Source: Torpedo marmorata
Taxonomy: Eukaryota
NCBI GenBank assembly: GCA_977017645.1
Contig: OZ360222.1
Location: 81,530,001-81,594,000 of the forward strand
Length of the DNA stretch: 64,000 nucleotides
Direction: 5' to 3'
Positions 8,302 to 64,000 of this stretch are shown one piece after another (within the stretch, counting starts at the first letter, position 1; every line of letters starts with the position of its first letter). A program made the position numbers and the translations under genes. Below the pieces are notes generated by a model, which saw only the letters and a program-made list of their open reading frames with translations, made no database searches and had not been told where the DNA came from.

Positions 8302-9633
8302 CCTCTGCACATCAATGCTTTTCATAGTCCTGCCATTAATTGTATATTTTCCCCTTACATTTGGCCTCCTGAAGTTCAACATCTCACACTCATGTAACTA
8401 CTCTATTGTCTACCGTATCCTTTGATGGCCCTCTGCACCATCCACAACTCCACCAATCTTTGTGTGATCTGCAATTTTACGAGCCCACCCACCTACCTTT
8501 TTGTCCAAGTCTTTTACATACCTCACAACCAACAGGGCTCCCAACACCGATCCCTGCTGAACACCACTGTTCATGGACCTTTAGCCAGCGTAATACCCTT
8601 CCACCACTACCCTCTGTCTCCAATGGACTCCAATTCCAAATCTAGACTATCAATTCACCATGGACCTCATACATCTTTACCTTCTGGATTAACATACCTT
8701 ATTAAAAGCCTTATTAAATAAAGTCCATGGAGACAACATCCACTGCCCTACCCTCATCAACCTCCTGAAAGAACTCAATCAAATTTGTAAATTATGGCCT
8801 GTCCCACACAAAGCCATGTGGCTGACCTTAATCTGACCACACCTTTCCAAATGTACATTCATCCTATCCCTAAGTATTCTCTCCAATAACTTCCTTACTA
8901 CTGATGTGAGGCTCACCAGTCTATAATTTCCTTTGGTTAGAATTATTGGAAATATAGATTTTACATTTGTAGCAGTAGAATCTAAGTTTTATGGAATGAT
9001 AAATAGCCCATGAGTACATTTCTGTTCATTGCTTCCCAGTCATACATTAATAGGACAGCCTTGATGTAACAAAATTAGTAATTATTGATTTGGGAAGACA
9101 TATTGAGAATAATGGCCTCAACAATCCGGTAGTGTAGTGATAAGAGTTTAGAGGTTACAGGTTAGAGTCCAAGGGCCACCTGACACTTGAATTTTCCAGC
9201 CTTGACTGATACATTTTGTCAGTGTCTGTCAAAGCCACTTGAAACAAAGCTTCACAGAGTCTTGAAAGAGAGGCAAAATTGTAAGCATGTTTCTGCTGAA
9301 TTCTGCTGAGGGATGAGCTTCACTGATTTTGCTGAGGCTAAATGTAGAATTAAGGTGTGGTGAGGTTTCATAGTTAGATTCCATTGTATGTACAGGAGAT
9401 TGAAGAGCTTGTATGAAAGTGTAGTCAGCAAGAACTCAGACATAAACACAACATGTTAAAAGTCTCACCTTGACGGCATGGCATAAAAAGGAGAGCTTTG
9501 CAGGCATAAATGCACGCAGAGATGAGAATTTTTTAAGCATGTTTTACAGATATCTGTGACATTGCAGCAGTGGATGGTTTGATGAAACCAGCTGACTTCT
9601 GCATCTGTGAATGCACATGCCTTTGCTCTAGAA

Positions 9634-10253: not shown

Positions 10254-11670
10254 TACAAACAAATAAATGATCACATTTTCCTGATAAATTACACTTAAAC
10301 TTAATAAGCAGAGATGATGGAAGGGAAAAGAAAACATATTCTTGACTGAAACGTCACTCTGCCTCCATTCAATCAACCCAATGCAAGGAATATCAAAGAG
10401 AGTACAATATGGTGACACTATTTGCAGCATATTTAACACCATTAACCAGGGAAGAATTTCAAGGCATCGGAATTTGATTTAAGTGAGATTTTTAACGGGC
10501 TTTAATCTGGTAAAACTATAATTAGTGAAAATCCTCCCTGCAGTCAAATTTTCCGAGACTTGATGTTTCTTGGTGTGAGAAAAGATGATTAACTAACTCT
10601 ATTTATTAATTGATTGCAAGTTAATTGACTAATGATTATCCACTTGATTAAAGGTTTGACTGTCATGTTTGTTTATTGTATTGGTATTCATTGTGTTTCA
10701 CAATTAATCAGTGTTATATTGAAATAATTGCACTCTTCATTAGTATTAATTGAACCGCATTGTATGTGTTGAAACTTATTTACCCTTACTCTGCTGCATA
10801 CAAACAATATGAGACACCTGTTCTGAGGGTTAACTATAAAGGGCGCAACAAATTAAAGAAAAGCTGTAGCCAAAATTCACCTCGAGGACTAGCTGCTCAG
10901 CACAATATAATCAGAGCTTAAAGTTAATGATTTCTGTCTCCTCAGAACTGGTCATCTTCATATTTTAAGTACAAAGAAAAAGCAATATTAGTTGACTATT
11001 TGAATCATCTTATGAAATGATGAGTTCAACTCATTTTCATCATGAATTTGACTTTTGTGACTTTAATTCATACTTGAAACTGAAGCTAAAAGGCAAGAAT
11101 TATTTTCAGGTGTGGTCTTCTTCTGCATAACCTGTGAGAGCTCTCAGGTATTCTGAGCTATGAATTCATTGCCAAACGGGAATTCAAAAGAGAGCAGTAC
11201 TATGAGCAAATTTCCCCAGATGTCTGTGGTGAAGATGCTCATCATGGTGCCATCCAGAAGTTGACAAAGGACTGCTCTATTTTATTACTTTCCAAACCTA
11301 AAAATATCCTATTTCGACGTGTATTGTATAGGCCATACAAATATACTGCACAGTTCATCCATTCTACCTGACAATTGCAAATCAAGTCCAGCAACCTTTC
11401 AATATCCATTGATGGTAGAGTCCACCCAGGGACACAGGAATTTGCACAGGATTTTAAAGAACAGTTCACCACTTCCTTGTGCTGAAAGCATATGCATTTA
11501 CAGGCAAGTTTCAAAACTGATTCAAGGGAATATTGCAATTTATCCCTTTTCCTTCTATCAGATTCCTTTTTTTCTCATTTGTTTTTAGAAAGTGTGTCAC
11601 AGGTGGGGTCAGTATATATTACTCCTTCCGAGTTGTTCTTAGAACATTTTAAACAGCTGAATGACTCGTT

Positions 11671-13208
11671 ATCTCTGAGGGCGACGTCAGAACATCATTC
11701 AAGAGGGTGAACCGTCGCAAGGCGTCAGGCCCTGACGGCGTACCTGGCAGGGTATTGAAAATCTGCGCCAACCAACTAGCCGGAGTGTTCACGGACATTT
11801 TCAACCTCTCATTGCGGCAGTCAGAGGTTCCCACATGCTTCAAAAGGGCATCAATCATCCCGGTGCCCAAAAAGAGTAGTGTGAGCTGCCTCAACGACTA
11901 CCGCCCAGTAGCACTAACTTCTACTGTGATGAAATGCTTTGAGAGGCTGGTCATGGCCAGAATTGACACATACCTAAGCAAAGATCTGGACCCACTGCAA
12001 TTTGCCTATCGCCACAATCGCTCCACAGCAGATGCAATATCGCTGGCTCTCCACTCAGCTCTGGACCACCTCGAAAACAGCAATTCATAGATACGGTTGC
12101 TCTTCATCGACTACAGCTCGGCCTTCAACACCATTATTCCCTCAGTGCTGGTCAAGAAGCTACAAACTCTAGGCCTCTGTACCCCCCTCTGCAACTGGAT
12201 CCTTGACTTTCTCATCAGAAGACCACAGTCAGTACGAATTTGAAACAACGTCTCCTCCTCACTGATTATCAACACAGGCGCACCCCAAGGATGCGTGCTT
12301 AGTCCACTGCTCTACTCGTTATACACTCATGTCTGTGTGGCCAGGCACAATTCCAATGCCATATACAAGTTTGCCGATGACACCACAGTTGTCGGCAGAA
12401 TCACAAACGGCAATGAGGAAGCGTACAGGAGGGAGATAGATCAGCTCGTTGAATGGTGTAATGGCAACAACCTTGAGCTCAACGTCAGCAAAACCAAGGA
12501 GATGATTGTGGACTTCAGGAGGAAGTCAGGGGAACATGACCCAGTCCTCATCGAGGGCTCAGTAGTGGAGAGGGTCAAGAACTTCAAATTCCTGGGTGTC
12601 AACATCTCCGAGGATCTGTCCTGGAGCATCCACGTGGATGCAATCACAAAGAAGGCTCGTCAGCAGCTATACTTTGTGAGGTGTTTGCGGAGATTCGGTA
12701 TGTCACTGAAGACTGGTAAACTTCTACAGGTGTACCGTGGAGAGCATTCTGGCGGGTTGCATCACTGCCTGGTATGGAGGCGCCAACTCACAGGACAAGA
12801 GTAAACTCCAGAAGGTTGTTAACTCGGCCTGTGACATCACAGGCACCAAACTTCACTCCATCGAGGAAATCTACATGAGGCGGTGTCTTAAAAAAGCAGC
12901 CTCTATCCTCAAGGACCCCCACCACCCTGGCCATGCCCTCTTCACTCTGCTTCCATCGGGAAAAAGTTACAGGAGCCTAAAGACGAGCACTCAACGGCAC
13001 AAGGACAGCTTCTTCCCCGCTGCCATCAGATTCCTGAATAATCAATGAACCAAAGACACTACCTTACTTTTCGTGCACTATTGTTTATAATTTTTTATAG
13101 TAATGTCGTTAGATGGTTAATATAAATGTTAATTGCACTATGATGCTGCCGCAAAACACCGAATTTCATGACTTGTTCATGACAATATATTCTGATTCTG
13201 ATTCTGAT
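11671..13208 (+). mobile_element. Rex1/Babar LINE, 5'-truncated (RT with stops and a frameshift)
   Basis: ORFs at 11707, 12295 and 12737 carry the Rex1 RT motifs. Ends in a (TTCTGA)n tail. Confidence 0.93.
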
Positions 13209-22495: not shown

Positions 22496-22715
22496 GAGCT
22501 TTGGACATAGCTTGGAACCCATCCTACCCAACATGCAAACAGTGACCAACCTCATTCATTCTCTTATGACCCATGAGCAAGCCAATTGTGATGGTAGCTA
22601 ATGTTTTTGTTTCAATTGCAACTTGAGCAGCATACAAATGTAGCAATGAAGCTGAGAACCCTTTCACAAAACATATGAGCCCAAGAAATCGATGTAGGAG
22701 TTGGCTATTCAATCA

Positions 22716-23549
22716 CTGTAGCGGCAGCGCTGCCGCTGGTGCGGACCCGCGGGGAGCGTGGGAGCGGAGATACAGCGCTCCCGCAGGGTCCAGCCGCCCA
22801 GTCGACTGCCATCGGTTCCGCACGGGCTTTGAACGGCCCGTTAAAGGAGCCGACGGTGGTTTTATTTAAGATCCCGCGACCGCGAGGTCTGCGCCCAAGA
22901 TGGCTGCGCCTTTTAACCGGCAGCAGCCATGAGGGGCTGCAGATTCTGGGGAAGTAGAGGACTGGAGCAGGGCACCAGAGGACGGGAAGATCATCCCCCC
23001 GTCTGAGAAGGAGAAGCGGAGGAGACGACCCACGGGATCACGGGATGGTGACCACGGCGGCGGACCGGTGAGGGGCTCTGAGGCTGAAGGACCAGTGCAT
23101 GCGACGGGCTGCTGGCGACTCGAGGCGAGGAACCCGCGGAGGCTGTGGGCTGCTGGAGGATGCTGTCGGGGGACTCACGCCGGGCTGCGTACTGCTGGAG
23201 GCTGGCTCGAACTGGCTGGAGGAGTACTAGGTATCGGAACCGGGATGCGAGGTGGTGCCGATGGCGACCTGACCGTGTCGGAGGTTCGGATCTGGAGCTC
23301 GGGTTGCCGATCGTTTGGACTGGACTCTTTGTGGCTGCGGAAGCGCTGGAGGCGAATCTATGGACACTCGGTGACTCTGGGGGGACTCTCTTTTGCTTCT
23401 CTTTCTCTGACTGTAAGGAATGTTAGAGGCACTTAGGCAATTTCTGCCGGTGGCGAATCTGTCTGCCTTGCAGCAGGCAAAAAGAAATTTCATGGAATAT
23501 AACACTGTCTTATTACTATGACAATAAATTGAATCTTGAATCTTGAATC
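22716..23549 (+). mobile_element. GC-rich non-coding retroelement with Rex1-type (TTGAATC)n tail
   Basis: Near-identical to 56359-57152. Ends atgacaataaattgaatcttgaatcttgaatc, is flanked by aatca on both sides, and sits inside a decayed CR1-like tail. Confidence 0.85.
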
Positions 23550-25953: not shown

Positions 25954-27410
25954 GATGTCACGCCACTTTTTAAGAAGTGATGTAGGCAGAAGACTGGGAA
26001 CTATCGGCCAATTAGCTTAACGTCTGTAGTTGGGAAAATGCTTGAAGCTGTCATTAAGGATGAAATAATGAGACATTTAGAACGAAGGGGTTCAATCAGG
26101 CAGACGCAGCATTGGTTTAGGAAGGGCAGATCTTGTTTGACAAACTTGTTAGAGTTCTTTGAGGACATAATGGGTGTGGTAGATAGAGGGGAACAGGTTG
26201 ATGTTGTATATTTTGATTTGCAGAAAGCGTTTGATAAGGTGCCGCACAAGAGACTTATCAGTAAGTTACAGGTGAATGGAGTCCAGGGAAGTATATTGGC
26301 ATGGATTGAGGATTGGTTGTCTGACAGGAGGCAGAGAGTCGGGATAAATGGGTGTTTTCTGATTGGCAGACAGTGGTAAGTGGGGTGCCGCAGGGGTCGG
26401 TGCTGGGCCCACAACTGTTCATCATTTACATTGATGATTTGGAGGAGTGGACAAAATGCGGTGTAGCCAAGTTTGCAGATGATACTAAATTGAGTGAAAG
26501 AGCAAATTGTACTGAGGATGTGGAGAGGCTGCAGAGGGATTATAGTTATGGTAAGTTAGGTGAGTGGGCAAAGGTCTGGCAGATGGAGTACAATGTTAGT
26601 AAGTGTGAGGTTATCCACTTTGGCAAGAAAAATAAAAGAGCAGAGTATTATTTATATGGTGAAAAACTGCAGCATGCTGTTGTGCAGAAGGACTTGGGAG
26701 TGCTTGTGCACGAATCGCAAAAAATTGGGTTGCAGGTGCAGCAGGTTATTAAGAAGGCAAATGGAATATTGGCCTTCATCGCTAGAGGAATTGAATTCAG
26801 GAGCAAGGAGGTAATGTTGCAACTGTACAAGGTACTGGTGAGACCGCACCTGGAGTACTGTGTGCAGTTCTGGTCTCCATATTTGAGGAAGGATGTACTG
26901 GCCTTGGAGGCAGTCCAGAGGAGGTTTGCTAGGTTGATCCCTGAGATGAAGGGGTTGACTTATGATGAAAGATTAAATCGTATGGGATTATACTCGCTCG
27001 AGTTCAGAAGAATGAGAGGAGATGTTATAGAAACATATAGAATTATGAAGGGGATGGATAGGATAGAGGTAGGAAGGTTTTTTTCACTGGCGGGTGAGAC
27101 CAAAACTAGGGGACACAGCCTCAAGATTCGGGGGAGCAGATTTAGGACAGAGATGAGTAAAAACAGTTTTTCCCAGAGAGTGGTGAATTTGTGGAATTCT
27201 CTACCCAGGGAAACGGTTGAGGCTGCTTCATTGAACATATTTAAGGTTCAGTTGGATAGATTTTTACATAAAAAAAGGAATTAGGGGATATGGGGAAAGG
27301 GCAGGTAGGTGGAGTGAGGTCATTGATCAGATCAGCCATTATCTTATTGAATGGCGAAGCAGGCTCGATGGGCCGGTTGGCCTACTCCTGTTCCTACTTT
27401 CTTATGTTCT
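25954..27410 (+). mobile_element. CR1 LINE, 5'-truncated (RT + 3' UTR)
   Basis: ORFs contain NYRPISLTS, GRSCLTNLLEFF, DLQKAFDKVPH, SGVPQGSVLGP, KFADDTKL and LVRPHLEYCVQFWSP. CR1 3' end gggccggttggcctactcctgttcct...ttatgttct. Confidence 0.95.
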
Positions 27411-32469: not shown

Positions 32470-32580
32470 GTGTGCGCTTAGATAGGGTGCGTGGTGGACG
32501 GCAGAAGTATAAGCGCAGGATAGATGCAGAGAACAGCCCTTACTTGAACCCTCAATTGGTCCAACCTGCCAAAAAGCCAT
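32470..32580 (+). CDS. ESRRG: ESRRG coding exon (DBD C-terminal extension/hinge), 111 bp
   Basis: Acceptor ctttttcAG and donor GTaagg. Translates (G)[36 protein letters not shown], the ERR-gamma T/A-box and hinge; phase 1 at both ends. Confidence 0.97.
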
Positions 32581-34851
32581 GTAAGGACAAATAATTAATT
32601 TATATTGTATTGTATAGGAGGCTATAAACATATAAAGCTTCAGCATGTTAATTTTCAAACCAGCAAAACAATAGCATGTCTTATCTATTTCAGTGTATTC
32701 ACCCAGCACACACAACCAGTTAAAGAGTTTGCAAACAGATTGAAGTGATGATAGTGCAGAACTAATCCAGTCTCCATTTTATAAATCACCAGTTTGTTTT
32801 TCATCAGTGGTAGCACAATGTACTTTATGAAAAGTGATGTAGTCATGTGGAAGTATTTTGAATTGTCCATATTTTTTTTGCAGTCCAATTAAACAATGCA
32901 TTTCACAGCAGTAATGTTTAAACAGCATTTTTTTAATTACATTTTGAATAGCAAAAAATGTTTTATTTTGTGGTTTTGTTAAGTTCTAAGTCCCTCAGAT
33001 ATATTCATTATGTTTTTATTTGTATCCCTTGACTGTGATCTAAAATTGGGATTTTTCAACAATGTTGAACATTAAACACATCTGCATTGTGTTATTTATT
33101 GAGCCCTGAAGCTGGTCATCATGCTAACCTCATACTAGAATGAAGATTACTGATCTGCATAAGCTGCATATTGCCTTTTTTTAAATCTTTCACCTTTTAT
33201 GATGAGACTTTGCCACCGAGAGAGTAAATGTTACATTTTAGGTGTTGTTCCCTCCCTTTTCTTTTCTTGATTGTTGCAAAAGGTGGTATAAAGTATGGTA
33301 GAAAATTATTAATGTTGCATCATCATTTAAATTGAAAATTTTAATATTTCTTTCAGATTGGCTATATTTTTTATTGCTCAATACTTTAAAATTGCACCCC
33401 TTGTCTGGGTCCTTATATTTATTTTAGCCATGAGAAATATCCAATAATTTCAATGCATGAACTTGTGTTGCTTTTGAGCATAGGTCATGCGCAGCCAATG
33501 GTCAAGACTGGAACTGTTTGTATTTTCCAACATATTCTTTCTATTAAATAATAAATAATTAAGTATAGCTGAAAGCAATTCATGGAATTTCAGATGTTAA
33601 TCGGACCAAAGCTCACACTTTGACAAGGAAGAGCAATATAATATGGTGCGTAATATACCATATTGATGAAACATTGCTCTCACATTTACAGTTCTGTAAG
33701 TCACATTATGTTAGGATTTTGAAATGAAGTCATGCCTAACAAAGTTCAGACTTTTATATAATATCCAAATAACACAATATATTTAGTTCTTTCAATATTA
33801 TACTGACATCATACTTGTTTATTTTTTGATATCTTCAAATAAACCATTAGTTTGCATCTCATATTAAAATTGAATGAAATTAATCCTTTTAAAAATTAAA
33901 AAAGCAAATATATATCATTCGTTTATGCCCCAGCTTTCACAACTCCTGCCTGAAATACAGTAGTGTAATTTTGTGAACCCTGGAGGAAACAATACTAAGT
34001 TAATAAAAGTGAAATATAAAACGTTCACCATTTACTTTGCTAGAGGTGATGCTGTCTTAAATTCCTTCGATTTTATATATCGAACATTTTCAGAGGGACT
34101 AGGAACAGAAATTGAAGTTTTTTTTGAACATATGCACTTCACAATATTTCTTGACAAATTTTAACGAGTGCAGATATGGGCTGGTTCACATCTTAGTATG
34201 ATTTCCCAAGCCACAGTGATATTTTAAAAATCTGGGACCATTTGTAACTTCTGTTTGTCTTTTATATTACTTGACTGAATAGCTCAACTGGTTATATTGA
34301 GCAGGGTGCTACACATCAGAGATACATCCATATTTAATTTGGTGTGCTTGACTATTTGAGACACACCAACAGTATTTTCTTCCCCTTTAAAATTGCTGTG
34401 TTACATCCATTTGTTTTCTTTGTTTTAAATTTATCTTTTCTTTCTACAGTACCTTTAAATTTCAATAGGATTCCAGTGTTTTGTGTATCATATATTTGGA
34501 TAGTCTTAACACTTGACAGTCATTATTTGTTATCTAAAATTATGCTTTTCAGTTAATAAGCAATCTTTAAAAAAAAAACATTTATAAAATACATGGTCAT
34601 TTTTAAAGTTGTGTTAGGAAGTGCAGTTGTGTCTTGATGTAGTCTAAGAGATTTTCTGGCTCCTGATTGATTATTTGTGCATTACAAAGCTGTTCTGATG
34701 AAAATTGGGTTGTATTGATTCTAATTAAGGCAACATTAAATAAGATTTATCAAGAGATACCGCTTGCAGCTACTCAATTCCCTGAGTGATGAGGCTGTCT
34801 AAACTGATGCAAACGTTTCTTGCTTTCTCTTGCCTGGGCTTTCTATTCTAG

Positions 34852-35013
34852 TCAACAAGATTGTCTCGCACTTGCTTGTGGCTGAGCCAGAGAAGATCTA
34901 TGCCATGCCTGATCCCACCGTTCCTGACAGTGACATCAAAGCCCTTACTACACTGTGTGATCTGGCAGACCGAGAGCTGGTAGTCATTATTGGATGGGCG
35001 AAGCATATTCCAG
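34852..35013 (+). CDS. ESRRG: ESRRG coding exon (LBD helices 1-3), 162 bp
   Basis: Acceptor ttctattctAG and donor GTaaaa. Translates (F)[53 protein letters not shown](G). [16 protein letters not shown] is diagnostic of ERR-gamma rather than ERR-beta or alpha. In frame with the preceding exon. Confidence 0.97.
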
Positions 35014-39761: not shown

Positions 39762-40475
39762 ATCGCATTCGACTGTTATGCATGTAAATGGATTAAGTTG
39801 AATTACCCCAAACCAATATATATGACAAATAACTTGAAATTTTATTTTTTAGTTGGAGGATAAATAGTGTCTGGGGCTTAAAAAAAGAAGCTTTCCCATA
39901 GTACATTGGAAAATTGAATGGAAATATGATAAAGTTAAATTGTGTGTCTTTTGTCTCTATTTAATATTTTTGTTTAAATTGTGATTACATATGATGTCAT
40001 CACAAGAGCTGGATTTGAGACATTGTTGAGCCCATAAAGGAATTCATTTATCACTGCTTCATAAAGCATTTTACCCTGGGTACTTCAGTTATCATACAAT
40101 TTTAATTTTACATTTTTAATTTGCTTCATTTGTACTGCCAAATGCAATCATTCTTCCTTACCAGTTTGTCCCCAATGATAACTGCGCACAAAGTTTGAGT
40201 AGGACTTTTCAAAAATTGTGGAAGGATGTTATCAGTACTTTTTATTTGAAAATCTGTCTGAAAAGCAATATTTCCACCTTTAAAAAGTCATAATAATCAG
40301 ATGCTAGAAGGCATATTGGCCAAGAAATTGGATCTATTACTTCCTATTTTCATGCATAAATCATACATAGAAGTGATTTGGCTCAACTAAAATCATGCTA
40401 GCAATCATTCACACGTGAAATCATATCCATTCAGAAATTGGCCATTGCATCTTCAAATATTCACACGGAGTGGAT

Positions 40476-41844
40476 AAAAGGGCATCAATCATTCCGGTAC
40501 CCAAGAAGAGTAGTGTGGACTGCCTCAACGACTACCGCCCAGTAGCACTAACTTCTACTGTGATGAAATGCTTTGAGAGGCTGGTCATGGCCAGAATTAA
40601 CACATACCTAATCAACGATCTGGACCCACTGCAATTCGCCTATCGTCACAATCGCTCCACAGCAGATGCAATATCGCTGGCTCTCTACTCAGCTCTGGAT
40701 CACCTCGAAAACAGCAATTCATACATATGGCTGCTCTTCATCGACTACAGCTCGGCCTTCAATACCATTATTCCCTCAGTGCAGGTCAAGAAGCTACAAA
40801 CTCTAGGAGTCTGTACCCCCCTCTGCAACTGGATCCTTGACTTTCTCATCGGAAGACCACAGTCAGTACGAATTGGAAACAACGTCTCCTCCTCACTGAT
40901 TATCAACACAGGCGCACCCCAAGGATGCGTGCTTAGTCCACTGCTCTACTCGTTATACACTCATGACTGTGTGGCCAGGCACAATTCCAATGTCATCTAC
41001 AAATTTGCCGATGACACCACAGTTGTCGGCAGAATCACAAACGGCAATGAGGAAGCGTACAGGAGGGAGATAGATCAGCTTGTTGAATGGTGTAACGACA
41101 ACAACCTTGAGCTCAACGTCAGCAAAACCAAGGAGATGATTGTGGGCTTTAGGAGGAAGTCAGAGGCACACGACCCAGTCCTTATCGAGGGCTCAGTAGT
41201 GGAGAGGGTCAAGAACTTCAAATTCCTGGGTGTCAACATCTCCGAGGATCTGTCCTGGAGCCTCCACGTTGATGCAATCACAAAGAAGGCTCGTCAGCGG
41301 CTATACTTTGTGATGTGTCTGGGGAGGTTCGGTATGTTACCGAAGACTCTCGTAAACTTCTACAGGTGTACCGTGGAGAGCATTCTGGCTGGTTGTATCA
41401 CTGCCTGGTATGGAGGCGCCAACTCTCAGGACAAGAGTAAACTCCAGAGGGTTGTTAACTCGGCCTGTGACATCACAGGCACCAAACCTCACTCCATCAA
41501 GGACATCTACATGAGGCGGTGTCTTAAAGAAGCAGCCTCTATCCTCAAAGTCCCCCACCACCCAAGTCATGCCCTCTTCACTCTGCTACCATCGGGGAAA
41601 AGGTACAGGAGCCTAAAGACAAGCACTCAATGGCACAAGGACAGCTTCTTCCCCGCTGCCATCAGATTCCTGAATAATCAATGAACCAGACACTGCCTTA
41701 CTTTTCGTGCATTATTATTTATAATTTTTTATAGTAATGTCGTAAGATGGTTATAATATGAATGTTAATTGCACTGTGATGCTGCCGCAAAACACCGAAT
41801 TTCATGACTTGTTCATGACAATAAATTCTGATTCTGATTCTGAT
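40476..41844 (+). mobile_element. Rex1/Babar LINE, 5'-truncated, RT frame uninterrupted (~400 aa)
   Basis: ORF 40470-41684 has all the RT motifs ([16 protein letters not shown]); (TTCTGA)n tail. Confidence 0.95.
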
Positions 41845-50600: not shown

Positions 50601-53186
50601 TTATTGCAGCATCCCTTCATTCAACTGACAACTTCCCTGTAGCTGAAAGAGTGTTTTGTATGTAGTAGAGTGTTATTTAAGCACTGGCTGCAAACATTGA
50701 GCCTGTCATGTTGCATTGTAACAGTTGCCAAAACCTGTTAAGCATCAATAGGTCTGAAACCAGCAATGTAGCTTTCAGCTCAAAAACTCAGCAATGCTAT
50801 TCTCTTGTTTCCATTCATGCAATTTTCAAAACAGTATTATGATGACCTATGATGAAAAACAGGCACAGAGCAATTTCTGTACAAGTTTTTCATCGGATGA
50901 CACAAACAGGATATTCATATTTTGGAATTAATATTATTTGAGCAAAGGTGGAGAGAATAATTCCATCATGAGTGACCTTTTAGAAAGGGCTATTACTGTA
51001 TTAGATGGTCCAAAATATCCAATTTTCCAGTATATATGCCATGCATAACGTAGAAATATTAGGTATTTCATTTGTTGCTTTCTTACCCATCTTATTGTTG
51101 ATTTCTTTCCCTGGGGTGGAGGAATGCGTTAATACAACAATCACATTTCCCTGACTGCTATAAAACATCATTTCAAGACATTTTTTCACAAAGTTTTACT
51201 CTAATAGAAACCTTTTTTCATTCACCTTCTTTTTCTGTTAGTTATGATACTAGCAAAAGTAAAATGAAGCACCTTTAATTTGAACACATAGATTTTATCG
51301 TTGTTAGCTTTCAAGAGTCCAAATTTTTAGGCTCGGCAGGGCCTATTTGGCGCACATTTAAATAAAGGGGGAAAAATAGGAACAAAACATATTTGGTTGT
51401 CCCTCTCCCTTCTACCTGTGTTAGCTTGTGTGAAAAGGATAGCCATTTCTCAATACTTTTGTAACTGTCACACACTTGGGGTCTGCAAAGTTCTTTTAAA
51501 AAATTGCTGAATTAGCTGAAAGGAGCTATAGACCTCAAGAACAAATCTGCTGGGGACTGTTGAGGGAAGAAGAAAGAGTAAAACATGACACACAACAGAA
51601 CAGCTAACAGATATCTGGAGAGGGTTGCCCTAATGCACAGCTGCTGCCTCCTTAGCTCATCCTCTCCTTTTGTCAATCCAAGGCATTGTGGTTGCATTTG
51701 TGCAGGGATTTATAGTTTATCTTTATCTATTGCTTCATCTGTAGGTAGCTATTATAGATGCCTCGACTGGTTATTGTTTGGGGGTGATAGATCTGTCTGT
51801 ACTTCATCAAAGAAACTGGAGTAGCTAAAAGCCATTGGGTGAAGCTTATGATGAAATACGAGCCATCAGCTTCAGTAATGGCTGTAAAATTTCATAATTA
51901 CATGTCCTTTATTACATTGCATAATGATCCTGAAGCAGTGTGAAACAATTAATTAAGATTTTGAACCATGGCTTTTTTGAAATTAAAAGGTACTCAGTCT
52001 GTGAAATGGGGAAGTGGCTTTCCTTTAAAGCATGAAGGAGACGTGTTCAGGGAATGTGATGTATTGAGCCTAGATTTGTAAGATGCACTGAACTAAGGAA
52101 AATTCCTCTCAAGCAATCATAAATGAAGTATTTTGCACAAAATGTAGTGTCATAGCATCCTAGATTAGACTTGTCACAACTGCCATTTTCCATAGCTATT
52201 TGCCTCATTCAGTGTTTTAGGTGTAGCTGATAAGAAATTGAGTGACTTGTAAAGTGCAGACATTTTTTTTTAAAGAAACAACTCTTGTTTAACATTTCTT
52301 TGCAAAGGCTTTATCAGTTTCAAAAATATAATGCTCAAAGAATCCATCAAAATATTTGATTTTTTGTGTATTCGCGCTGAATAAATTGTGTACAATAGAA
52401 ACCAACAGATTCACAATAAAGAACTTAGATGGAGAAAAAGTTTATTTTGCTATTGTTATTTTATATTCTATCTATACCATTACTGCTGGCAGACTTCTAG
52501 TACTATTTTAGTACACAACTGCAAAACATTTCAATGTGTGTTTAAGGATTGGATGAATAAAACATCATCGTGTTTTAAAGAGTAGTATTTGAAGAACAGT
52601 ATTTAAAGTAATAATTGTCAAGATAAGAGGTAATTGAAAGTGAACAAATAAAGATTGTCACTCAATTGGTTGGCATGTAGGCTTGATTTACTATGGTGGA
52701 GGATTGAATTTGTTTTGTGTGTTTGTTCATTGTCTTTTTACTAAAGTAGTCCAATAAATCCTAAAACTGGCTTTCGACAATGAAAAACAAATGATCAGGT
52801 TGGATAAATTTAGATTAGGATCTTGAATAAATGATTAACTTTGCTCACTGTGTGGCTGGACAAAATTTGAAATGGATATCTATTTGATTAAAAGAACATC
52901 TAAAGGATTACAAAATTAGGGTAAAATTTAGGATGTGCAGTAAACACATATTATAGTACCTTGTGTGTCTGTTCTACTTCCAAAATTTAGTTAAATTAAC
53001 TATAGTAGAACCAATTTCCTGGAATGAGTACACCATGCATATGCTATGTTTAGTGAAGGTCAAATGTTTTCCTTATAGCAAGGATTATGTCACAGTTATC
53101 CAGCACATGCTAGTATTTCACAGAGCCACAGACAGTGGTCATTCAGCCAAAGACCTTTGCAGTTTGCGGAGCAGACTCGATGGGCC

Positions 53187-54070
53187 CACCTACCACCCCA
53201 CCAGCCTCCACATCCAACACATCCTCCTCTGCCATTTCCGCCACCTACTACGTGATCCCACCACTAGACACATATTCCCCTCTCCTCCCCTCTCCGCCTT
53301 CCGCAGGGACAGCTCCCTCCGTGACTCCCTTGTCCACTCCTCCCTCCCCACCAATCGTCCCCTTTGGACCTACCCCTATGACCGTAGGAGATGCTCCACT
53401 TGCGCCCACGCCTCCTCCCTCAGCACCATTCGGGGCCCCAATCAGTCCTTCCAAGTGAAGCAACATTTCACTTGTGAATCTGCAGGGGTTATCTACTGCA
53501 TCTGGTGCTCCTGCTGTGGTCTTTGCATCAGAGAGACTGGACGCAGGCTGGGAGATCACTTTCTTGAGCACCTCGGCTCTGTCCGCCGCAATAGCGTGGA
53601 TCTCCCAGTGGCCACCCATTTCAATTCTCCATCCCATTCCCTTGCCGACATGTCTTTCCATGGTCTCATGTACTGCCAGACGGAGACCACCCATAAATTG
53701 GAGGAACAACACCTCATCTTCCGACTGGGCACCCTCCAACCGGATGGCATAATATCGACTTCTCTGGTTTTCGTTAAACCCTCTCCCCCCACCCCCTGTG
53801 TCCCCGTCGTCTCTCCATTCCCTGTCTCCTTTCGCACAGATATGATAAATTCTACCTAGTCCCTTATCACAACCAATTAACACCTTTTGTTGGTCTGGAT
53901 TCCTCACCCATTGTTTGAATTCTGAGACTTTCTGATATATCCTGCTTCTGCCTTTTCTGATTTTTCATTGAAGAAGGGCTCAGGCCCGAAACGTCAGCAA
54001 TATATCTTTGTCTCCTATAGATGCTGAATAGACCAGCTGAGTTCCTCCAGCATTTCGGTGTTTTTACTAC
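53187..54070 (+). mobile_element. Penelope-like retroelement 3' part (GIY-YIG endonuclease + terminal repeat)
   Basis: ORF reads FTCESAGVIYCIWCSCCGLCIRETGRRL..HFLEH...PVATHFN...KLEEQHLIFRLGTLQPDGI, the PLE GIY-YIG signature. Inserted in a CR1 tail (gactcgatgggcc | ctacttctgctcct). Confidence 0.9.
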
Positions 54071-54408: not shown

Positions 54409-56358
54409 ATCTTTGAGTCATTCCAACAATTTAACTGACAGTATCCAAATATTAGACTATTAATAAAGAATCACACTTGGGTGAAGTACTATAGAGGTAT
54501 TTATTATTCACCTTTTAAAAGCTCAGAACATGACAACAAAATATTTTTATTTGATAATGCTATAATATAGAAACTGCACTTAGTATTAATAATTTTTTTA
54601 TTATATTCTTTAATATTTGCATCTGATTTTTAAGTATACTTGTGAAAGAAACAAAAGCAAGTAGAGAAGAATATTTTTTTCCTCAGTTTCATAAAATAAA
54701 TCCTATAATTAAGTCAGGTTGCACCATCAAAATGAATGTGTCTCTGTTTATGATTAAATGGTCTTAACTAGTACTTATTTTAAGAGAACGCTCAGCAGTG
54801 TATTGCTATAAAAGCATTGTACATAGTAAGCTCACGGAAATGATGAGGATGGATTCACCATCTACTAAATAGCTTGCAGCAGGGGCAGAAGGGAAAAAAA
54901 AATCACACAGTTTGAGGTAACGAGCTAGAACATTTCACTAGTGCAGAGTTATCTGATTCCATTAAAGTCATTACTGGCAGAGTGCACAGGTGCCTCCCCC
55001 TCCCCCTTCCCTCAGCTATTGCTCACATATTGCTGTGTGGATGCTGTGTGGATAATGGTGTCATTCTTACAAAAATCCGGGTGTCGTTGCCTCTGATCAC
55101 TTGTCATTCCTTAATGGAAACAAAATAGTCCTCCCAGTAAGAAACCCAATGTCATTTCACTACCCCATGCTGTCCTAGCAATAGTCAAATGACAGAGTGA
55201 TTCTCAGTAGGAGTAATTAAAATGTAAATATTGATATTTTATTATTTGAAATTACTTTCCAGTGCAGCATTTAATGTTGCTCCATCTGTGCAGCTCTGTT
55301 TAGTGGTCACTTAAGTGCAGCTCTGGGACATGAAGCAGCAGTTCAATCCTGTCATGTCAAAATGCTTGTTCCTGCTTAATTTTGATATCTAATTAAGTGG
55401 AAAAGTACAGTCCAAACTGTAATCCAGGCATCTTAAACAGCTGCTTGGGTATATTTAGAATTAATCTTGGCTATGAATTGTCTTAATGTATGCAATTAAG
55501 AGTCTGCGCATTCCTAATTAGGTGTATTAGAATCATGCAGCTTCCCATCCTGGTATAGACTTTGGGATGTCTGCCTCAAGAGTAAATGATAATGCTACTA
55601 AATGGATTGTGATAAACATGGCAGTGTTAATGTATTTTTTTCATTCTGCATTGCCGCTGCATAGAGTTTCATTCCTTGTTTCAGTGAGATGAAAGCAGTC
55701 TCTGATAAAAGCTGAAACAACTTCAGTCTGCTCAATGGCACCAGTCTACATTTCAATATGCCTCTGTTACACAAACTCAAGGGGATTAGGCGCTAAAATT
55801 CTTTAATTTTTACCCTATTTACAGTCTTTTAGCAACCTTATATTGATTGAATGTTGAAACTCTATTTGCATGGAGGCATAAAAACTCCCATTTTGTCAAA
55901 TGTGCATGGTGCACTTTTTTGCTAAATGTTCAAATATTCTTTGATTGAGTTCAAGCAAATATTTTCAAATCTATGTGCATTTAGAATTCAGGCAAATGCC
56001 TGCTCATGGACTTATGCAGTTATAGCATGTTATGTGATTCAGTTGCAGTTTTGCTTTTCAACAAGTATTGGAAAACTTATCTGCTCTCATCTGTTGTATA
56101 TTGACATATTTTTGACAAGTAGGTAGCTTTTCAGATATATTTTAGCTATACATTATTAAATAATTTAACAATATTACTGTAGCTATATTATTTCATGTAG
56201 CTTAATTACGACTGCCTTTCTTGGCTAGATAATAAAAAAATGTTTTTAAAGATTCAAAATTCCTTTATTGTCATGTAATCATACAGAACGTGTAATATTA
56301 CATGAAATTATTACATGTAATAATATAATAATAATAGTAATTACATGGAATATTACAT

Positions 56359-57152
56359 GAGCGTGGGAGCGGAGCGGAGATACAGCGCTCCCGCGGGGTC
56401 CAACCACCCAGTCGACTGCCGTCGGTTCCGCACGAGCTTTGAACGACCCGTTGAGGGAGCCGACGGTGGTTTTATTTACGATCCCGCGACCACGGGGTCT
56501 GCGCACAAGATGGCAGCACCTTTTAACCGGCAGCAGCCACGAGGTGCTGCAGACTCCAGGGAAGCGGAGGACTGGAGCAGGGCACCAGAGGATGGGAAGA
56601 TCACTCCCCCGTCTGAGAAGGAGAAGCAGAGGAGGTGACCCATGGGACGGTGACCACGGCGGCGGACCAGTGAGGGGCTCTGAGGCTGAAGGACCAGTGC
56701 ATGCGGCGGGCTGCTGGCGACTCGAGGCGAGGAACCTGCAGAGGCTGTGGGCTGCTGGAGACTGCTGTCGGGGGACTCACGCCGGGCTGCGTACTGCTGG
56801 AGGCTGGCTCGAACTGGCTGGAGGAGTACCAGGTATCGGAACCGGGATGCGAGGGGGTGCCGAGGGCGCCCTGACCGTGTCGGCAGTCTGGATCTGGAGC
56901 TCGGGTTGCCGATGGTTTGGACTGGACTCTGTGTGGCTGCGGAGGCTGCGGAAGCGCTGGAGGTGAATCTACAGACACTCGGTGACTCTGGGGGGACTCT
57001 CTTTTGCTTCTCTTTCTCTGACTGTAAGGAATGTTAGAGGCGCTTAGGCAATTTCTGCCGGTGGCGAATCTGTCTGCCTTGCAGCAGGCAAAAAGAAATT
57101 TCATGGAATATGACACTGTCTTATTACTATGACAATAAATTGAATCTTGAAT
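56359..57152 (+). mobile_element. GC-rich non-coding retroelement with Rex1-type tail, inserted in an antisense relative (56248-56309 + 57151-57180)
   Basis: Near-identical to 22755-23549. The flanks match the 3' end of the 15470 copy and join up when the insert is removed. Confidence 0.85.
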
Positions 57153-59461
57153 TGCGTTCTGCCTGCCATAAGACAGACATAAATTTTTCATTCTCTTTCT
57201 GAGGTATAAAATCTCAGGTAGCTTAGTGAGTTAAACATTTTCCAGTGCTCCATTTGAATAAAGGGCTGGGGTAAAGGTTATGGTTAAAATAAACTGTTAT
57301 CTTTATAATGCACAAATATGCCTGAAATTATATTCCTTGCATATTTGATCTCCACAGTTTATTCGAATATAGAATTGTGTTTAGTGCAAAGCCACTTTGT
57401 CCTAATATGACTGCATCATGACAATATTAAAGATATTTTTGTTTTCTGTGAGAAATGAAAGCCAGTAACTAACACAGCTATAATAAAGTCCATCAAAATT
57501 GATGAATGAAATTCACAATGGAAATGTCACCTCTCCTGTGGGGGAACTATCAGCTCACTTCTGAGACAAAGATATTGCAAAGGGAACTTCCAAAATATTA
57601 CCTGCTTCACTAATGAATTTTAGAGTGACACAAGCTGCATGAAAATGTGTGCTGGGCAAGTGGAAGTATTTTGTCTAATTTTCATAATGACCATGTCATA
57701 AACAAAACGTACATTGGTCTGTTTAGGCTTATTTTCATCATAACAACAGTTTGCAAATCATTTTTCAAATAAGATGGCGCTCATTTGAAATGGTGTTTTT
57801 TGGTATATTTTTCATCAGTTTAACATTGGGAAGATCAATCACTTACTAATTTTGATCACGAAGGTATGCTGTCTGAACTTAGGTTTCTTGCACAGTTGCA
57901 TAATTGTCCACCAGAAGGTGTACAAGAGCAATATCAGTCCATTGCTGTTTCATTTGGCTCAGGTCATATTGTACTGACGTCATGCGTTGGATCGCAGGGA
58001 AAAGTTGTGCTTCATACTGTTAATTTTGCACTTTAGCTGCTGTATTGCAGAGAAAATAGCCGCACCTAGATTTGTTTTTTGAAAAAAAATTACAATAGGG
58101 CCAAAACATGTTAATGTAGGCAAAAGAAAATGCATGGCAGCACAACTATGTTTTAGTGGGGCAAATAACTGGGGATTCCAAATAAGGTTCAAGAATTTCA
58201 GCATTATCTCAGTCAAGATTCTTCTCTACCACAGTAAAATAAAAAGAGGCCACACTTTATAGATAGAACATAGGTCAAGAGTTTGTTTTTAACTCTAGAT
58301 TCCAATATCTGCATGCTCTTGTTTATCCATAGGTCAGATGTTTTACAGCTTTCCTGAAACTTACTGGCCAAAACATGCCACCTACTGTCATGAATTTTAA
58401 TGTATTTTACATGTCCCAGCAAACATGAAACAAAAAAAACCAGCTGGCCTGCTAATAAATCAATAAAAATAGTTAGTTCCATATATGAAGATTAAATGTA
58501 TCCATTCTACCTCAAAGCTAAATTACGGCAATGGTTTACTTCTGAAAAATAAAACAGTTGTTTTCATTTTATCCATATAAATGTCTATTTCAGAGTCACT
58601 GGATGATATTTATTTGCCCTTCACACACACAAGATGTTTAGACTCTTTCAGATGACTGAAGTGCATCACTTCACCTATCCAAAAGTGCTAGACAAGCGCC
58701 ACTGGCATTAGCATCACTGCTGAGGCCTGCAGCAGAACTGGGGAGACTTTGGAGTTTCCGCACACGTAAATGTCAATACAGTGCCTTCTCCATCATCAGC
58801 ACTAAATTCACTTTGATGCCTCTTTTCTTCTCTTTATTGATCCCTTCATGAGAACGTAGATTTGTATCTGTTAATTAATGCATCCTGAAACAGCGTTTGT
58901 ATTAATCAGTCAGATAAGAAAAATTGGATGCCTGCACCCGCATGACAACCGTAAAAGTGCTGCCCTGATAAAATCATTTATAGGCCTCAATAAAAAAAGT
59001 TCCTCCCTCCACTCAATAAACTAATCATCCTGCTTTTAATTATTAGGCAGAAGATGTGTGTAGATTGGGAATGTGTAAATCTAATTATTTACCAACAGCA
59101 GTGGCAAGGGTTGTGAAAAAAAGCCTCATCATTGGAACGTGCTGCAGGCCACACATACAGACAGTCGAGTAATTCTATGAGCATGTCTGCTGTGGGAGTC
59201 TAACAAAAGATAAACTCTTTTCCCATTAAATTAAGTGTGAACGAATATTTTTGTAAGTGGGCTAAGTGTTGTTAAAAATCATTTCTGAGGCAATATTCTG
59301 CAATTTGATAAAAGGGTGGGGGGGGGGGAGGTCTCGGCTGAGCAATCTAACAAAGAGAGCTTTTGCTATTGTCCAACATGATAACAAAGTGCAAATGATT
59401 TTGGGGATCATAATGTCTGATTGACCATTGAGTAATATACCCACATTCCACTTACATCTTG

Positions 59462-59666
59462 TGTCGTGGTCGCGTACTTACCTTCGTTGGGAGCGGTGCT
59501 GGCCGCCGCTGATGATGTAAACTGTAGTAAATCAGTGTTGTTACAAGTGGTGACCCCGTGAGTTCACAGTTCCAATCAGTCGCCTCCTTGCATGGCTCAG
59601 AGGCTGAGGGGGGGGCTGTCGTGGTCACGTACTTACCTTCGTTGGGAGCGGTGCTGGCCGCCGCTG
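59462..59666 (+). mobile_element. Miniature LTR retrotransposon (TRIM-like); 3' LTR truncated
   Basis: 84-bp TGT...ACA LTR, PBS TGGTGACCCCG, ~70-bp internal region, PPT GAGGGGGGGG, and a second LTR copy 49/50 identical. Confidence 0.8.
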
Positions 59667-59845
59667 CCCAAATACCCCTATTAACCTACAACCCCCATAC
59701 ATTTTGAAAGGTGGGAGGAAACTAGAGGAAACCCATGCAGACACGGGGAGAATGTACAAACTCCTTACAGACAGCACCGGATTCGAACCTGGGTCACTGG
59801 CGCTGTAATGTTGTTGCACTAACTGCTACTCTAACCATGTCACCC
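59664..59845 (-). mobile_element. V-SINE lacking its 3' tail
   Basis: Reverse head and V-domain; abuts the truncated LTR. Confidence 0.85.
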
Positions 59846-61879
59846 TCTAGTATAGAAAGAAGAGGCTGTGAGGTTTTCACACATTGCACTGGGGTTTGGA
59901 GGAGAGGGAGTCATAGAGGAGGAAGTAGAAATTTCTTGAAGGAATCCTCCAGATACACTCTTGAACAGTGAACACAGTTGGGCCTTAAAGTCAATACTAG
60001 GAGGTCTCACCTGCACAATTGGTTGCTGTGCCTCAAGAGGTTAAGTGACCTCATAGTCAAGGTCAGTCAGAGCATCTTTGGATGCCATAATTTACTAACT
60101 GCACAATTAATCTCAGACATTGCTCAGTACGTCACATCTTTAATACTCACTTATCTTGGTGGTTAATTAAATATTATGTGGAATATGACTTGCTTTAAAG
60201 TTGATATATCTGGGTTGTTTATTTTGTGATGGTTTGGCATTGTAACGGAGACTGAAACAGTCATTGCTGAGGTCAATGAATGTTGAATATCATTGAATGT
60301 GGTTGAGAATACTGGTAGTTCACTTGGAAGAGCTCCTCATGGATAGCGCAAGAGAAAGTGCTTATCTGGATTCGCTCTGTTCTTCCTCTTCTGCCTCTTC
60401 TTCCTACTCAGGGATCTGTTCAATCCTTTTTATTAGAAGGAAGTACTGTCCCAATGTGATGACAAGATTCTGTAGCATACAACAAATTCCCATGATCTGT
60501 ATTACACTTTGCCAATTCTTACTGGGCTGCTCCAAAGTGGTGCAAGAAGCAGAAGTAACATCTAATCACAACAAATGTCAGATTTTGAGCAACAGCACTT
60601 CCTCCATTGTATTTCTTTCTGTAAATATATGCGTGGATTACACATGGGAGTCATCTGTGTCATCTGGAAATAGTATTGTCCATTCGCCACAACTGAGTTA
60701 TCTGTGATGGCTTAACTGAAACTAGCACAGCAGTCTGATGTAAGAATGGCAGTGCTGTCCTTTTGAAGACATATCAGCTGGATTCTGAAGGAGTAGAGTT
60801 CCTTATGTTTCCAATATAGACCAGAGTTTGTGACTGATATGTATGCAATCAAAGCTGAATACAGTTTCTGCTTGATATTTTCTGACAGGAGAGAATGAGA
60901 AGTAATCAGTTCTCCACTCTTACACTAATGAAGATGACACATGCTATGATTCTGAAAATACCTTCAGTTCCAGTCAAGAATGGGCTAAACCATAAAGTTC
61001 ACTCCCATGTCAACCTTGACAGCCACTGCCTTAGCAGTCATTGCCTTGTTCTAAGTTTTCAAGAGCACATATAGTAGGTGCCAGATTTCAATAATGACAA
61101 CCTTTTTGGAAAGCACATGTCTAGACCCCATTTCTTACTTAAACTGTCTCCCTAAACACAATGGATAGATATGGCACCCTTTCTTCCTTCTCTTCTTCCT
61201 CCCTTTTGTATTCTGTAAACCTTCAATGCAATCTTCCAGTTACACTGGATTACTATCGGAAGGCCTACTAATATATCCATGCCTGGGAACAACTGTTTTC
61301 TGCAGAAGCCATGATGTGTGCAAAAAGTCCTTCGGTACCTAATACTCCATGAACGGCGGAGATTTAAGGCTTGAAGCAACCATAGAAAGCATCAAATCTT
61401 TGCAGAATCACAGCAACAGTCTGAAGAAATTGACCTGTAATTACTTAATGATCCCCTTAAAATCCACTGCTGAATGTTACATGCGGCTGATGGTCACATC
61501 TAGCATGCTCATTTAAGAAAAAACACTAGCTCAAATGTTGCGCCCCAAAGTACTATCCCTGGCATTAAATTATCATGATGCTGATTTATGTCATGGTGTA
61601 CCTTTACCGCATACTTTCATCCGGCATTCAGTCTATGCACTGATGCCACTATGAATTTGACACCACGTGTGATTCACCCCTCTGATGCCATTTTGCATGT
61701 TTAAAGACACTCATAATACTCAAATAAATCATTCTAATGCTGTGACTTCTGTGCCGTTTATATTAAAACTTAGCGCTCTGTATCTTTCGAAAATAATATA
61801 TAAAAAGAGATGTACAGGCCTGTTCAATATTGTTATTATTGAGGATGATTTTGCTGTTGGCACATTTCTTATGAAGATA

Positions 61880-62410: not shown

Positions 62411-63740
62411 AACTCACACTGGTTTGGTTCATCCCCTTTGATGGTTTTATTAAGTGTCTTTACTTGACTCTGCTAACTGGCATTCCATGGCATGTCACTA
62501 CCAGGACAGAAAAACACCTCAGAAGCTGTAAACCATTCTCCTCCTGTTAACAAGATTGTAGATCTTAGCAGTGAGGAGATAATAAATTAGTACTGTAGTT
62601 GGTATAAACAATAGCCTGAAAGACATATAATGAGCTGTTTGCCATTAGTGGTCTAGTTAGACAGGGATGAAGCAAACTGATTCATGTAGCGAAGCCTTCA
62701 CTGTGACAGCCTTGCCTGAACAGATGTTTTCAAAATTTGCCCTCCCTTGATGAACTAGTGACGGATATGCTTTTCTTTTACCACAGCTGTGGATACCTCT
62801 GCCTCAACAATAGTAAAAGCAACATCACTTGCATATTTAATGCTGTGCAATAGAAACATAATTCAGTGGAAGCAAATCTACAGGAAAGAATAAATGTAAA
62901 CTACAATTTCATTTACATGTAACCTCTGAATGTTGGACATTTGATACATCCTGCAAAACAACCATGCCTTGTGTTCATTGCAGTCCTTATGTATTACTCA
63001 TCTAAATTCTTGACAAGTTTTTTTTGAATGGTTAGAATAGGATCTCCTATGATATTACCACATTCATGCTTATTCCAAAAGATGTTCATGAACCATAAGT
63101 TGCAAATTACAACAGGGTAAATAAGAAGAACTTCTGCCAAAAGAAATCCATCCACTTTGTTATTATGGGTCAGGTCAGTGCAGCATTGACCTCAGCCTTG
63201 TTCTGTCCATATTGCTATTTATGTGATAACAATTCATCAGAGCTATAAAATTGGGCAATATATATACAGTATATATACTGTATGTGCATATAAGATTTCA
63301 AAATATTAATGTGGCATTAAAATACATTAATACTATAATATAACAAAAATAAATTTGAGATGTATGTTCTGTTGCAGAATAAGAGGGTAGAGAGACCGTT
63401 TCCTACCAGCCAAATCAGGATTTACAACATTTAAATAAGAAATGGCAGTCCCTGTTCATTTAATTTCTCTCTCCAAACACAGGCCCATTATTTTCTTTGA
63501 TTACCTCTGTCTTTTACCCCCCCCCCCCAAAAAGAAATCTCATGTAATTGAACGAGTTATTTCTCTGGTGGTTATCCTGTGTGCATTGGCTTGATTCAGG
63601 GTTTTATTTGATGGATAACAAAAATGGTTCTAACAGTGAATTAAAGTAATCTGCTTCCACCCTTGCTATATTCAACCCTGCTTTGTGACACTGCCGTGTC
63701 CCCAGTTTATAACACTGCCATGTCCCCCTTTTCTTTCCAG

Positions 63741-64000
63741 GCTTCTCCACGTTATCTCTGGCTGATCAGATGAGCCTCCTCCAGAGTGCCTGGATGGAAA
63801 TTCTGATCTTGGGGATTGTGTACAGGTCACTCTCTTTTGAGGATGAGCTAGTATATGCTGAAGACTACATCATGGATGAAGACCAGTCAAAGCTAGCTGG
63901 ACTTCTTGATCTGAATAATGCCATATTGCAGCTGGTAAAAAAGTACAAGAGCATGAAGCTGGAGAAGGAAGAATTTGTCACCCTCAAAGCTATAGCGCTT
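63741..64000 (+). CDS. ESRRG: ESRRG coding exon (LBD core), cut off by the window end
   Basis: Acceptor ttttctttccAG. Translates (G)[86 protein letters not shown]; in frame with the exon ending at 35013. Not in the ORF track because no stop falls inside the window. Confidence 0.97.

Follow-up and report, generated by a model that had tools for sequence, protein, structure and literature searches.

A TRIM-like locus in an ESRRG intron of Torpedo marmorata is probably a twice-deleted member of an old CsRN1-type Gypsy retrotransposon family

We analysed a 64,000-nucleotide stretch of the Torpedo marmorata genome (contig OZ360222.1, positions 81,530,001 to 81,594,000), here called the window. Two exons on the + strand encode consecutive stretches of the solved ligand-binding domain of ESRRG (estrogen-related receptor gamma): the upstream exon (34860..35009) matches residues 5-54 of PDB 2ewp_A (phmmer E 2.6e-29), and the downstream exon (63740..63997), which has an AG acceptor immediately 5′ of it, matches residues 56-141 of the same chain (E 1.8e-48). 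The element considered here (59462-59666) sits in the sense (+) orientation in the ~28.7-kb intron between those exons, which bears out the intronic placement given in an earlier note on this DNA. We take 32470-32590 (+), recognised by motif, to be a further ESRRG exon.

From left to right, the locus consists of an 84-bp repeat, the dinucleotide AG, a primer binding site (PBS), a stretch of 47 nt, a purine tract, a single C and then the second repeat. The first repeat is the 5′ LTR (59462..59545, +); it has TGT...ACA ends and retains the outer parts of the ~350-bp LTR of a repeat family, ~55 nt at the start and ~30 nt at the end; on a natural LTR of 349 bp these correspond to positions 1-54 and 320-349. 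The PBS, TGGTGACCCCG (59548..59558, +), is complementary over 11 nt to the mature 3′ end of tRNA-Trp(CCA); this match, made with two tRNA-Trp genes of the same genome that were located by ARAGORN, substantiates the proposed tRNA-Trp primer site. The interior contains the joint of a large deletion (59566..59573, +), a remnant of the 3′ end of a longer interior (59574..59605, +) and the polypurine tract GAGGGGGGGG (59606..59615, +), a G run; the length of this run is highly variable across the family, too much so to serve as a lineage marker, and we rejected it as such. The second repeat, the 3′ LTR (59617..59666, +), is cut off after 50 nt and is 49/50 identical to the 5′ LTR, the single mismatch being a CpG-type G>A at position 11. 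A putative left copy of the expected 4-bp target site duplication (TSD), CTTG, lies at 59458..59461 (+), its partner having gone with the 3′ end. Thus far the letters and positions of the repeats, the 2-nt spacer, the PBS and the purine run are those given in the earlier note; its interior of ~70 bp holds for the whole interior (71 bp) and not for the shorter stretch from PBS to purine tract. In all, 205 bp of the element are present, and the longest open frame in its interior is 23 aa. Each part matches a repeat family of hundreds of copies (reversed-pattern controls gave 0), so the anatomy is far beyond chance. The 3′ LTR ends before the joint of the LTR deletion (nt 56-61), so it was not necessarily ever 84 bp long, and the size of ~240 bp assigned earlier is an extrapolation.

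In the 84-bp LTR, AATAAA, CCAAT, TATA, box A and box B are all absent. The AGTAAA that had been read as a poly(A) variant is a private change (A at this position in 5/113 LTR ends); the real AATAAA of the family lies in the deleted part. The consensus splice-donor-like motif AAG|GTAAGT noticed earlier on the minus strand is present in both repeats (59476..59484 and 59631-59639) and is a standard part of the family LTR; because the element is sense in the intron, the motifs are antisense to the ESRRG transcript, and their relevance as splice donors is unsupported.

The 3′ LTR abuts a tRNA-headed SINE on the minus strand (59667..59845), presumably a V-SINE, that lacks its last ~50 nt and its tail; a few bases are shared at the junction. 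Nineteen other copies of this SINE, in the window and at other loci, continue ~50 nt plus tail beyond the break point; a deletion therefore joined the LTR to the SINE, as the earlier note had supposed. Two further possibilities were rejected: the element did not insert into the SINE, as the left flank contains no continuation of it, and the SINE did not insert into the LTR by normal target-primed reverse transcription, as the tail is missing and not the head. At one other locus (L097) a family LTR has inserted inside another copy of this SINE, close to the point at which the SINE beside the window element breaks off.

The family to which the LTR belongs is abundant in the 6.2-Gb source genome: its 5′ end, searched as an LTR-end/PBS pattern, occurs at 798 places (control 0). 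A BLAST search of the genome gave 3426 candidates, of which the best 40 were scored, and 30 loci were examined; at these the normal LTR is ~350 bp. The normal interior of the family is ~4.1 kb. We examined 58 copies, a non-random sample that is biased to short copies (11/58 were retrieved with the element's own ends as queries); 30 have both ends within the sequence examined, and 28 have no recognisable 3′ end. The interiors of the 30 span 71 to 4139 bp, and the longest open frame among the 30 measured interiors is 371 aa. With stops read as X, the longest copies contain DUF7041, RVT_1, RT_RNaseH and Integrase_H2C2 domains as well as YIDD, TDAS and GPF motifs; the CHCC Gag motif (CX2HX9CX3C) is found in four of the nine longest, the region being deleted in the other five. 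The RT-RNase H-integrase order is the Gypsy order and is accompanied by the GPF motif and a 4-bp TSD, so that the Gypsy partner with the same LTR ends that the earlier note anticipated exists in these long copies. The TSD is exact at 4 bp in 12/21 complete copies and has at most one mismatch in 18/21; an exact 5-bp TSD occurs in 1/21. Three loci that had been picked for other reasons (L040, L123 and L127) have a tRNA-templated primer site of at least 18 nt, which is direct evidence of priming by tRNA-Trp. Divergence between the two LTRs of a copy runs from 5.1 to 15.5%, apart from one outlier of 29% (median 8.0%, n=21); judged by this divergence the parent family is old, and the youth proposed earlier does not hold for it.

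The marks of the CsRN1 clade, as given in the parts of PMC2582038 and PMC11117352 that describe them, are the tRNA-Trp site TGGTGA(G/C)CCCG, a CHCC Gag, a 4-bp TSD, TGT...ACA ends and GPF; members (CsRn1, PwRn1, AgCR and fish CsRN1 families) have a total length of ~4.3-4.8 kb, and CsRN1 Gypsy families are known from fish (PMC11117352). The parent family has the same primer site, Gag type, TSD length, LTR ends, GPF motif and overall length, and on these diagnostic motifs, rather than on an RT tree of reference elements, we class it as a CsRN1-type Gypsy; the window copy, in contrast, has no coding sequence left and a quarter of its LTR. A successful subfamily, with about one-third of the sampled 5′ ends (L076, L083, L108, L063 and others), has an LTR of ~239 bp, with LTR positions ~29-138 deleted and CCAAT and AATAAA kept.

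The LTR of the window element has lost ~265 bp between two hexamers, a short direct repeat of GTAAGC type at LTR positions 56 and 321, with the joint at 59517..59522 (+). The deletion took out CCAAT (position 181) and AATAAA (position 256), which long LTRs keep in 27/31 and 29/31 cases, respectively. In two genome-wide searches this joint was found in eight LTRs at five loci: four copies with interiors of 71 (window), 320, 552 and 2162 bp, including a complete 488-bp copy on C56, and one solo LTR on C42. All four loci other than the window have 4-bp TSDs. One of them (L094, G000:C22:144.108-144.111 Mb) combines 84-bp LTRs with remnants of RNase H and integrase (rve). A marker base is present in 6/8 short LTR ends as opposed to 4/92 long ones, so four of the five short-LTR loci had one source; the window element is the one without it, and in L094 it is present in the 3′ LTR and absent from the 5′ LTR. 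The three other copies have the same deletion in both LTRs, inside a 4-bp TSD, so the short LTR probably passed through reverse transcription and integration; other shortened LTR forms in the family (~239 bp and, more rarely, 131 and ~205 bp long) likewise occur in both LTRs of a copy. When these three copies were tested as a clade, their interiors had three weak columns in common, two of them in a gappy stretch.

The interior underwent a deletion of its own. Nucleotides 1-28 of the window interior correspond to 1-28 of a 4139-bp interior and nucleotides 21-70 to 4064-4113, that is, ~4.07 kb was lost between near-repeats (ACAGT-CC, which long copies have at either end) located 21 nt from the start and 50 nt from the end. 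Three differently built searches found this joint at two loci, the window element and a copy on C42 that has 351-bp LTRs, 430 bp apart, with 7.4% LTR divergence. When the 30 interiors were mapped on the longest, the deletions were seen to keep both ends, and every copy had its own joints, except for the window element and the C42 copy, which share theirs; the family amounts to a swarm of deletion forms of all sizes.

The combination of an 84-bp LTR with a 71-bp interior is single-copy in the assembly, with no second copy among the best 40 of the 3426 BLAST candidates; pattern searches overlook copies with indels or with more than 2-3 changes in the pattern. This bears on the proposal of the earlier note that the locus belongs to a young, amplified family of ~240-bp TRIMs. 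The TRIM-like anatomy is perfect at this locus, the LTRs are 49/50 identical and the family includes an autonomous-type partner that shares the LTR ends, as such a proposal would have it; however, the structure occurs once, which is the outcome that the note had itself named as decisive against its proposal, and the window copy has decayed from the family as much as the others have. We regard the proposal as very improbable: as far as this assembly goes it is refuted, barring a large number of copies that are missing from the assembly or strongly diverged. The part of the claim that stands is that this is a non-autonomous piece of an LTR retrotransposon with cis signals only.

By the TRIM definition in PMC4717578, a TRIM is shorter than 1,500 bp and encodes no retrotransposon protein, and the same is true of the window element; a TRIM has two LTRs with a PBS and a PPT between them, and so does the window element, with a 3′ LTR of 50 nt. 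The copy criterion of that definition excludes it, the 84+71 structure being single-copy and incomplete; if the criterion is read loosely, the C56 copy and the C42 solo LTR would pass, but with a different interior.

Evidence for the way in which the family makes its deletions comes from copies of its primer. We examined 26 (L130-L155) of 42 genome matches to the 3′ end of tRNA-Trp; two are tRNA genes, and the remaining 24, a number that is not a rate because the search pattern selects read-through cases, are 3′ pieces of mature tRNA-Trp attached to repeat ends (23 of the matches end in CCA and one in TCA). Most of the pieces halt just 3′ of the anticodon. In L134, L135, L138, L147 and L152, and also in L123, the piece follows the LTR of the window family; the remaining pieces sit next to repeat ends that recur and that presumably belong to other LTR families. 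They resemble plus-strand strong-stop DNA that was extended past the usual 18-nt stop and then integrated, the 18-nt strong-stop rule being that stated in PMC8599865; aberrant insertions driven by primer ends have been described in yeast (PMC11042837), and our literature search found no paper on genomic fossils of primer read-through. The over-long tRNA-Trp copy is joined directly to deep interior (L123 and L138) or to inverted interior (L134 and L147), so these rearrangements date to reverse transcription. Inverted interior pieces lie beside a tRNA-templated primer site in L134, L147 and L127. The family leader (L108, L135 and L152) can pair with tRNA-Trp twice, at the 11-nt PBS and, ~15 nt farther downstream, at a short match opposite the anticodon-stem side of the tRNA. 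It is at this second match that the long tRNA copy of L135 and L152 gives way to the normal leader again; the deletion in the window element (59548-59573) removed the match.

The LTR pair of the window differs at 1/50 positions, and the 23 other pairs differ at 2-25, none being as close (median 7 after two indel-shifted rows were dropped; one further row is unanchored). Both window LTRs carry CpG decays at positions 6, 27 and 39, each of which is found in 16-21/81 LTR starts; the joint chance of the three being shared is ~0.012. Measured against the family, the window copy is as worn as the others, with 4 CpG changes among its first 59 nt, and its LTR end carries private non-CpG changes. Seventeen LTR starts lie within two mismatches of the window's: two are its own, 14 belong to long LTRs and one to an LTR of unassigned length. 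Among the 15 others we found no donor with the window's three CpG decays, no short LTR and no private end changes of the window type. The closeness of the pair may reflect conversion, late re-copying from a decayed template, or chance together with the eye of the reader who picked the locus. A simple old insertion does not predict the 1/50 pair or the shared CpG decays; these observations count against the explanation that we favor (below), as do the two occurrences of the interior joint and the common source that the short LTRs had at least once.

One account that takes up this evidence is that the locus is a TRIM caught at birth, that is, a Gypsy derivative of ~240 bp, with neither promoter nor poly(A) signal in its LTRs, that would have been transcribed (e.g., by read-through from a host gene), reverse transcribed late from a decayed template and integrated long after the main burst of the family. 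The late re-copying would have reset the LTRs to near identity, and the C42 copy would be a relative that recombined with a long LTR. This would accommodate a pair closer than all 23 others with its three shared decays, the identical interior joint in the C42 copy, and the passage of short LTRs through reverse transcription and integration (4-bp TSDs). However, the donor was not found among the 15 near LTR starts, two of the three shared decays are absent from the C42 copy, the marker of the other short-LTR loci is absent from the window element, recurrence of the interior joint is to be expected at a near-repeat, and a close pair is what a reader's eye would select; we therefore consider the account unlikely. 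If it were true, the template would have been a decayed one, probably a host read-through transcript, and the element would stand at the smallest end of a family-wide swarm of reverse-transcription deletions whose fossils include ~40-nt copies of the tRNA-Trp primer fused to the deletion joint.

A different timing is a real possibility, although we would give it less than an even chance: a longer copy would have inserted, microhomology-mediated repair would later have removed its interior from the chromosome, and the LTRs, by then 155 bp apart, would have been homogenised by gene conversion or unequal exchange. This concerns the interior deletion and the LTR identity alone and is compatible with a CsRN1-type Gypsy origin. 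The locus did undergo at least one later deletion, joints at short repeats suit repair as well as template jumps, and conversion accounts for the shared CpG decays with no need of a missing donor. However, the C42 copy, with the same short interior, retains its LTR divergence of 7.4%, so closeness alone is no homogeniser (although its repeats are farther apart, at 430 bp), and the tRNA-joined deletions show that the family makes deletions during reverse transcription.

We conclude that the locus is very probably a dead-end copy, shortened by two deletions, from an old family of CsRN1-type Gypsy LTR retrotransposons. The parent is an element with ~350-bp LTRs, a ~4.1-kb gag-pol interior, tRNA-Trp priming and 4-bp TSDs. 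The LTR deletion between the two short direct repeats would have passed through reverse transcription; a premature first-strand jump between the hexamers would give two equally short LTRs from a normal RNA. The interior between the near-repeats was lost, somewhat more probably because reverse transcriptase jumped template than through repair of the inserted copy. The family integrase, acting in trans, would have placed the element in its sense position in the ESRRG intron, and a later deletion over a few shared bases would have carried off the remainder of the 3′ LTR together with the TSD and the SINE tail. As far as our searches reach, the window element never amplified. It is most likely inert, because it has no promoter, no poly(A) signal and half a 3′ LTR.

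TRIMs and SMARTs of plants, ants and bivalves are described in the relevant part of PMC4717578 as arising by internal deletion of a long element. Like the window element, they have two short terminal repeats around a PBS and a PPT and no coding sequence (PMC4717578); unlike them, the window element is not multi-copy, is incomplete, has no TSD pair and has an LTR without promoter or poly(A) signals. The earlier note had placed TRIMs mostly in plants and a few invertebrates; vertebrate TRIMs had already been described as Helenus in coelacanth, sturgeon, paddlefish and zebrafish (PMC10886601). As far as the part of that paper on these elements goes, Helenus (LTR-11_DR, LTR1_LCh and LTR2_Lch) resembles the window family in being vertebrate and Gypsy-dependent and in having a 4-bp TSD; in contrast, the vertebrate Helenus primers are His, Leu or Lys (Trp in the window family), LTR-11_DR has thousands of copies (one in the window case), and the Helenus LTR has a tRNA-derived Pol III promoter that the window LTR lacks (PMC10886601). 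A tRNA- or 5S-derived Pol III promoter of the Helenus, TRIMp3 or Cassandra type was rejected for the window element: there is no Rfam match at E<=1 in 59000-60400, ARAGORN finds no tRNA gene at the locus, the 84-bp LTR has no box A or B, and two long family LTRs have no box B. In the literature outside subscription journals, Repbase and Dfam, we found no description of the window family or of a shark or ray TRIM.

Internally deleted copies of LTR retrotransposons are routine, and the window locus matters little as it stands. It illustrates how internal deletion, the route proposed in PMC4717578, gives rise to TRIM-like structures that mostly fail to spread; it also cautions against taking TRIM anatomy in a single window for a TRIM family. 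The primer read-through fossils of the family may interest specialists in reverse transcription more than the window element does.

The window also contains two similar copies of a GC-rich repeat (22705-23436 and 56279-57230) with open frames overlapping on both strands, and five long open frames at 6318-8321 (−), 11665-13048 (+), 40419-41684 (+), 25981-27284 (+) and 52957-53859 (+); we take the latter five to resemble reverse transcriptases of non-LTR retrotransposons and a GIY-YIG/Penelope-like piece.
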